NCBI RefSeq assembly: GCF_988243305.1
Contig: NZ_OZ547136.1
Direction: 5' to 3' (one strand)
Length of the DNA: 64,000 nt
Numbering within the stretch: the first letter of the stretch is position 1; every line of letters begins with the position of its first letter. Of this stretch, positions 8,349 through 8,522 are shown piece by piece. Both the position numbers and the translations under genes were made by a program. A model generated the notes under the pieces. That model had not been told where the DNA came from, ran no database searches, and worked only from the letters and a program-made list of their open reading frames with translations.

Positions 8349-8522
8349 TTTTTTGTCCATTGGAGGAGATTTAATCCCTTGCTTTTGTAAAACAAATGAC
8401 AACAACGGTTCAGTGATAATTATCACATTTCAATTGCACATTAATGGATATTCTTTAATAATCTCGCGACGTTTCTTTATGATAAATAATAATCAAATTG
8501 ATAAAATCAAAATGAGAAAAAT

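Follow-up and report, generated by a model that had tools for sequence, protein, structure and literature searches.

The genes for adenine permease (adeQ) and adenine deaminase (ade, or adeD) are transcribed divergently in Escherichia coli, and the AT-rich spacer between them carries a perfect 14-bp palindrome. Which regulator, if any, reads this sequence, and does it serve both genes? The original prediction, made from the DNA letters alone, likened the GATAAT/ATTATC arms of the palindrome to Fur-box hexamers and proposed a regulator site for the divergent purine genes. We examined this locus in a 64-kb stretch of a non-K-12 E. coli chromosome, referred to as the window, which has about 97.8% identity to K-12 in the adeQ/ade stretch. 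Our analysis indicates that the palindrome is very probably the core of a single cAMP-CRP site common to adeQ and ade.

Results

An AT-rich control region with a perfect palindrome

The spacer and the two genes that it separates are arranged as follows.

7014..8348, minus strand: coding sequence of adeQ (adenine permease), with the ATG at 8348
8349..8522, no strand: adeQ/ade divergent intergenic control region, 174 bp, GC content 0.27; the identical sequence in K-12 is flanked by the annotated genes adeQ and adeD
8523..10288, plus strand: coding sequence of ade/adeD (adenine deaminase), with the ATG at 8523 and a 1-bp deletion after 9771

The boundaries and the strong AT-richness of the spacer had been given exactly in the original prediction. 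GC content stays between 0.26 and 0.29 along its length, versus approximately 0.55 in the flanking genes, and a value of 0.27 places the spacer in the lowest 0.29% of all 174-bp segments of the window, which has a mean of 0.51. Among 5,426 complete E. coli genomes, 5,390 possess the spacer; a 60-bp segment surrounding the palindrome is identical in 5,265 of 5,387. A segment of 428 bp comprising the spacer and both gene starts (8262..8690) shows no differences from K-12; the coding sequence on either side differs at approximately 2% of positions (69 differences in 7000..10400). This segment is better conserved than synonymous sites.

Base composition of this kind raises the question of H-NS. 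A high-affinity nucleation motif for this protein, TCGATAAATT, was reportedly described by Lang et al. in 2007; the spacer contains one 8/10 match to it (TTGATAAAAT, at 8498), and 65% of composition-matched shuffles do equally well. The original prediction had also spoken of reported H-NS silencing of ade. Such silencing is indeed found in the literature, together with activation of the gene by insertion elements, in statements in PMC2753651 and PMC13274399 that attribute both to Petersen 2002. During evolution of E. coli alongside a partner that excretes adenine, insertions in the adeQ/ade spacer are moreover enriched (PMC13274399).

The palindrome, GTGATAATTATCAC, lies at 8413..8426, where it had been predicted, and is a perfect repeat of two 7-bp arms. 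Could it be an accident in DNA that is AT-rich and bound by H-NS, without any sequence-specific role? Perfect palindromes of at least 14 bp are not overrepresented in the window (2 observed versus 4.85 ± 2.1 in dinucleotide shuffles), 4.2% of shuffles of the spacer hold one, and the AT-richness of the spacer is extreme; palindromy by itself is within chance expectation. We nevertheless hold this reading to be extremely improbable, since the half-sites and their position are kept in about 10 genera while the neighboring bases diverge, the score of the sequence as a CRP site is on par with those of known sites, and both Crp binding and crp dependence have been published (PMC8085971). The match to the CRP core and the conservation of the half-sites across genera, unlike palindromy, do exceed chance.

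The other perfect palindrome of at least 14 bp in the window, ATGCAACGCGCGTTGCAT (45609..45626), is enclosed by aaaaggggg...cccctttt where a minus-strand gene has its 3′ end; it is a bidirectional intrinsic terminator of the ordinary kind.

The palindrome is the core of a strong CRP match

With its flanks, the palindrome reads ttcaGTGA-TAATTA-TCACAttt and has the geometry TGTGA-N6-TCACA.

8409..8430, no strand: very probable CRP binding site, 22-mer TTCAGTGATAATTATCACATTT, with its core at 8412..8427 and its center between 8419 and 8420

The sequence AGTGA-TAATTA-TCACA agrees with the CRP core at 9 of 10 positions; when the spacer was shuffled 2,000 times with its dinucleotides preserved, 0.9% of the shuffles equaled this. 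We also scored the window with a CRP matrix, rebuilt from a compilation of classic sites in which one site is misregistered (this adds noise only). At 13.3 bits, the 22-mer exceeds the training median of 12.5 bits and ranks 4th among 63,979 positions in the window, or 2nd when the tnaA and ilvB sites are dropped from the matrix; the runner-up inside the spacer reaches only 7.1 bits. The consensus test, which is independent of this compilation, agrees with the matrix.

The five best matrix matches in the window also include the sites of tnaC (59388, 17.6 bits), uhpT (11967, 13.8 bits), and ilvB (21143, 12.8 bits). The uhpT site lies outside the training set of the matrix and serves as a positive control: it is centered at −103.5 with respect to the TACAAT −10 hexamer (11886..11881), which we take to be its published position. 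This site, AAAGGTGAGATGCATCACGCTT (11967..11988), overlaps the stop codon of uhpC, which ends at 11981. Third in rank (13.4 bits) is a strong CRP-like sequence, ATGTGTGACGCATTTAACGTTT (5552..5573), approximately 60 bp upstream of the start of nepI; we know of no report of CRP control of nepI.

Only the left half-site departs from the consensus, with AGTGA in place of TGTGA. Both this deviation and the preceding TTC are conserved in orthologs, a pattern that could reflect a second constraint, for example, a −35-like element of adeQ. To our knowledge, neither a footprint nor a site mutant has been described for the ade CRP site.

Published data connect Crp with both genes. In a 2021 study in Microbial Biotechnology (PMC8085971), adeD and adeQ are listed among the Crp-activated units termed “novel and validated”; both fell into the “Crp activation” class when a crp deletion strain was analyzed by RNA-seq, and in electrophoretic mobility shift assays Crp with 1 mM cAMP shifted whole promoter fragments of adeD and adeQ that had been amplified by PCR. 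Expression that depends on crp and binding to the promoter fragments have thus been shown for both genes. The Crp sites of that study are in silico predictions that match TGTGAN6TCACA; since no other sequence in the spacer exceeds 7.1 bits, 8409..8430 is almost certainly the site predicted there. The part of a separate Crp ChIP-exo supplement that was covered does not list ade, but it also omits the textbook target uhpT and is therefore uninformative on this point.

Half-sites are fixed and the center is free across genera

A genome scan with the Ade protein yielded 34 enterobacterial loci, of which 29 have adeQ in divergent orientation to ade. The orthologous site is the top CRP-matrix match of its spacer in Escherichia, Citrobacter, Cedecea, Kluyvera, Pluralibacter, Atlantibacter, Buttiauxella, Yokenella, one Serratia, and Hafnia. 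When 17 orthologs from about 10 genera were anchored with a regular expression demanding GTGA and most of TCAC, the GTGA/TCAC positions agreed with E. coli in a mean of 16.75 sequences (1.92 bits) and the central six bases in 9.5 (0.60 bits), which is on a level with background positions of the spacer (7.4; 0.50 bits). An anchor-free matrix scan and a MAFFT alignment mark the identical columns. The central TAATTA of E. coli varies in Citrobacter, Kluyvera, Pluralibacter, Buttiauxella, Yokenella, and Hafnia. Variants among the orthologs include TTGCAA, TTACAA, TAGTTA, TACCTA, GTTTTA, AGCTAA, TTAAGG, and GCCATA. Fixed half-sites around a free center are the pattern that CRP recognition predicts, and the G that discriminates CRP from FNR sites (GTGA, not TTGA) is retained in 17/17 orthologs.

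The position of the site is conserved as well, above all on the ade side. In 16 of the 17 orthologs, among them three loci that lack adeQ upstream, 99.5 to 104.5 bp separate its center from the ade ATG; in Pluralibacter the figure is 93.5 bp. Toward adeQ, the center lies between 69.5 and 117.5 bp from the ATG.

Several loci depart from this arrangement. In Escherichia albertii, the right half-site has changed from TCAC to TAAC, and the CRP score falls from 13.3 to 10.3 bits. The adeQ/ade spacers of Edwardsiella, Enterobacillus, and Morganella (11 loci) lack the orthologous site and contain other CRP-like sites of 8 to 13 bits at different positions, a pattern that suggests turnover of the binding site with retention of CRP control. 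In the natural isolate E. coli ET565, a deletion at window positions ~8260..8373 takes the 5′ end of adeQ and the adeQ-proximal part of the spacer; this strain retains the CRP site and an intact ade, and its adeQ is annotated as a partial pseudogene. An insertion of an IS element was considered for the break in the ET565 match at 8374 and rejected in favor of the deletion.

Fur and other regulators do not account for the sequence

Within the palindrome, GATAAT (8415..8420) and ATTATC (8419..8424) are words of the Fur hexamer, and the metalloenzyme adenine deaminase depends on Mn2+ or Fe2+ for its activation (PMC6958661). A Fur box would have Fe2+-Fur bind these arms and couple the purine genes to iron status, a reading to which we give next to no credence. 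All three Fur models perform at chance level in the spacer, where 34 to 56% of shuffles equal the best match: the 19-bp consensus GATAATGATAATCATTATC has 7/19 mismatches at best, at 8447 and thus off the palindrome (56%), a 7-1-7 model (TGATAAT-N-ATTATCA) has 4/14 mismatches (41%), and a 6-1-6 model has 3/12 (34%). The two hexamers overlap, there is no third one, and no central base separates them; arms that abut without a central base have the wrong spacing for Fur. The TAATTA that forms the hexamers is, in addition, replaced in relatives, and the study that assigned adeD and adeQ to the Crp group found shiA as its sole new Fur target (PMC8085971).

The original prediction had made its case depend on conservation of the palindrome in close relatives and on a match to a regulator motif above background. 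For Fur both are lacking, as the consensus is matched at background level and relatives do not keep the Fur-like bases; for CRP both are found, in the form of the conserved GTGA-N6-TCAC(A). The original interpretation is borne out in part: the palindrome is very probably a regulator site shared by the divergent purine genes in an AT-rich control region, and its Fur-box reading is not supported.

PurR, for which the original prediction had recommended a motif search, likewise performs at chance level: the best match in the spacer to its 16-bp palindromic operator, ACGCAAACGTTTGCGT, has 6/16 mismatches, with 20% of shuffles and 234 sequences in the window matching equally well. An FNR site was rejected because the match (2/10 mismatches) is at chance level and FNR requires TTGA where the G is invariant, and a CytR half-site is matched at chance level in the spacer.

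Among other regulators whose target the palindrome might be (PlaR [YiaJ], a member of the FNR family, or a purine-specific factor), PlaR gave a genomic SELEX peak in this spacer, and adeQ and adeD are among its targets (PMC6958661). The conserved nonconsensus TTCA flank could be part of an overlapping site, and one half of the PlaR box, GTTCA, has a similar sequence in GGTTCA (8407..8412). The best match to the PlaR box (as given in PMC6958661), however, has 5 of 15 specified positions wrong and approximately 100 equals in the window; the AdnB (YdhB) motif (bioRxiv 2020.05.03.074617) is matched with 6/15 mismatches, and its TCAA-N5-TTGA is absent. None of PlaR, FNR, PurR, and AdnB predicts a fixed GTGA/TCAC around a free 6-bp center, and we regard a regulator other than CRP as the owner of the palindrome as highly unlikely.

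Promoter geometry points to class II activation of ade

Two −10-like hexamers lie at suitable distances on either side of the CRP site.

8449..8454, plus strand: putative −10 hexamer of ade, TATTCT; this would place CRP at −41.5 (class II) and the start near 8461, with a 62-nt leader
8384..8389, minus strand: candidate −10 hexamer of adeQ, TACAAA; this would place CRP near −42.5 and the start near 8377, with an approximately 30-nt leader

On the ade side, a TAnnnT hexamer starts within one base of an offset of 30 from the center of the site in 15 of the 17 orthologs, and in Pluralibacter the spacing of approximately 29.5 bp between hexamer and center is kept despite a deletion of 10 to 12 bp further downstream. 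Upstream of TATTCT, no −35 element is recognizable (8426..8431 reads CATTTC). From these spacings, we infer the promoter class and the start site: they suggest that ade has a class II CRP promoter with its start near 8461. The hexamer is TATTCT in E. coli and E. albertii; elsewhere it is TAAACT, TACACT, TAGACT, TAAAAT, or TATAAT, with TAAACT (or TACACT, TAGACT, or TAAAAT) in most other genera. This change, specific to Escherichia, might contribute to the cryptic state of ade. On the adeQ side, a T/A-rich block is found at a fixed distance from the CRP site in orthologs; TACAAA lacks the usual final T and is a weak candidate for the −10 hexamer.

A rival geometry would place CRP at a distal class I position for ade. 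The promoter would then consist of ATGATA (8479..8484) and an extended −10 sequence, TGATAAAAT (8499..8507), with the start near 8514 and CRP near −94.5. A promoter scan does return this −35-like/extended −10 pair with its TG extension (8479..8507), and the block that contains both elements is the most conserved part of the spacer. The conserved distance between the CRP site and the ade ATG would also fit, the lone change in length (approximately 10 bp, in Pluralibacter) corresponding to one helical turn. Yet the leader would be only about 9 nt long, with the ribosome-binding GAG at its extreme 5′ end, and −94.5 misses the usual class I faces of the helix by 1 to 2 bp. The TG is gone in Atlantibacter and Buttiauxella, and the upstream TAnnnT holds its exact spacing from the CRP site also when the distance downstream is altered. 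Activating insertions are said to have been found by Petersen in 2002 at positions up to +13, which is incompatible with a 9-nt leader. We consider the class I geometry plausible but unlikely and retain class II, with CRP at −41.5, as the probable arrangement at ade.

A conserved block next to ade

The part of the spacer closest to ade is conserved in its own right.

8478..8522, plus strand: conserved block TATGATAAATAATAATCAAATTGATAAAATCAAAATGAGAAAAAT (AATCAAATTGATAAAATCAAAATGAGAAAAAT), with the ribosome-binding GAG at 8514..8516 and the extended −10-like TGATAAAAT at 8499..8507

Unlike the remainder of the spacer, which diverges, this block is near-invariant between Escherichia and Hafnia, and it carries a 14-bp direct repeat. 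Its conservation is above the need of a ribosome-binding site alone. As an RNA element, it has no Rfam match and no conserved base pairs, and its predicted fold is not better than those of shuffles (z = +0.8); no match to the AdnB, PurR, or FNR motif was found in it. A mini-ORF that overlaps the ade start, ATGAGAAAAATATGA, was rejected because its frame is not conserved in orthologs, and the sequence is best read as the ribosome-binding region.

Differences from K-12 elsewhere in the window

Two further differences from K-12 lie near the locus. A 1-bp deletion in ade at 9771/9772 (cataacgAttgatt versus cataacgAAttgatt in K-12) splits the 588-codon frame into ORFs of 417 and 171 amino acids. 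The 80 bp around it have an exact match in none of the complete E. coli genomes, and the closest of these, LR778147 (99.5%), has the extra base; the deletion is either a private pseudogenizing mutation or a sequencing error. Between nepI and yicN, an insertion of approximately 840 bp relative to K-12 (5594..6433) encodes first a toxin of the RelE family (5727..6086; PF06296, E = 6e-42) and then an antitoxin of HTH_3/MqsA-like type (6070..6393).

Discussion

The site between adeQ and ade is real, functional, and ordinary, and it very probably belongs to CRP. It is no new kind of element, and CRP control of both genes has been known since 2021 (PMC8085971). What we add is the base-pair address of the site, the pattern of its conservation in about 10 genera, and a promoter geometry that can be tested. 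The analysis also corrects a misreading: an AT-rich palindrome that contains GATAAT looks Fur-like, and it is the spacing and the conservation pattern that identify it as a CRP site.

We propose that when cAMP is high, on a poor carbon source, a CRP dimer would bind GTGA-N6-TCACA and activate transcription in both directions. At ade, it would most likely act as a class II activator, standing in at −41.5 for a −35 element upstream of the TATTCT hexamer; at adeQ, a mirror-image class II arrangement, with CRP near −42.5 and the start near 8377, is possible. The reported silencing by H-NS, through which ade stays cryptic in laboratory E. coli, would act on this AT-rich spacer as well, and CRP and H-NS would interact there.

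Such an arrangement puts adenine uptake and deamination under carbon-catabolite control, consistent with the 2021 transcriptome and mobility shift study. It bears on the “cryptic” state of ade in glucose-grown laboratory cultures and on the repeated selection of insertions in the spacer when adenine is available (PMC13274399). In a more speculative extension, which we consider doubtful as a whole, one CRP dimer would stand at class II distance from both promoters (−41.5 for ade and −42.5 for adeQ) and form a very compact back-to-back bidirectional promoter, conserved in about 10 enterobacterial genera. The ade gene of E. coli would then be not a dead gene but one made cryptic by catabolite repression, H-NS, and a −10 hexamer weakened in Escherichia (from TAAACT to TATTCT), and a regulator responsive to adenine or nitrogen could have its operator in the conserved, unstructured block at 8478..8522.

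Comparison with known systems places the site among the targets of CRP. A Fur box (GATAATGATAATCATTATC, or at least three adjacent NATWAT hexamers) is likewise AT-rich, and the palindrome shares with it the words GATAAT and ATTATC; it differs in their spacing, in the number of hexamers (two, overlapping), in the chance-level match to the consensus, and in the lack of conservation of the Fur-like bases. The CRP sites of uhpT, tnaC, and ilvB resemble the ade site in motif and matrix score. They differ in that they act from class I or upstream positions and in that their function has been settled by dedicated studies; at uhpT, CRP sits at −103.5 with UhpA bound in between.

At class II promoters such as galP1 and melAB, CRP is centered at −41.5. 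The ade promoter is similar in having GTGA-N6-TCACA 29.5 bp upstream of a −10-like hexamer and no recognizable −35 element; it differs by its weak TATTCT hexamer and by the additional silencing by H-NS, and its own assignment to class II is deduced from these spacings. Like class II promoters, ade loses expression in a crp deletion strain (PMC8085971). Finally, adeQ and ade resemble other divergent gene pairs served by one CRP site in having a short spacer and in being both activated by Crp (PMC8085971). Their spacer measures only 174 bp, and if CRP does stand at class II distance from both starts (about −41.5 and −42.5), for which the adeQ hexamer is a weak candidate, the pair would form an unusually compact back-to-back arrangement.
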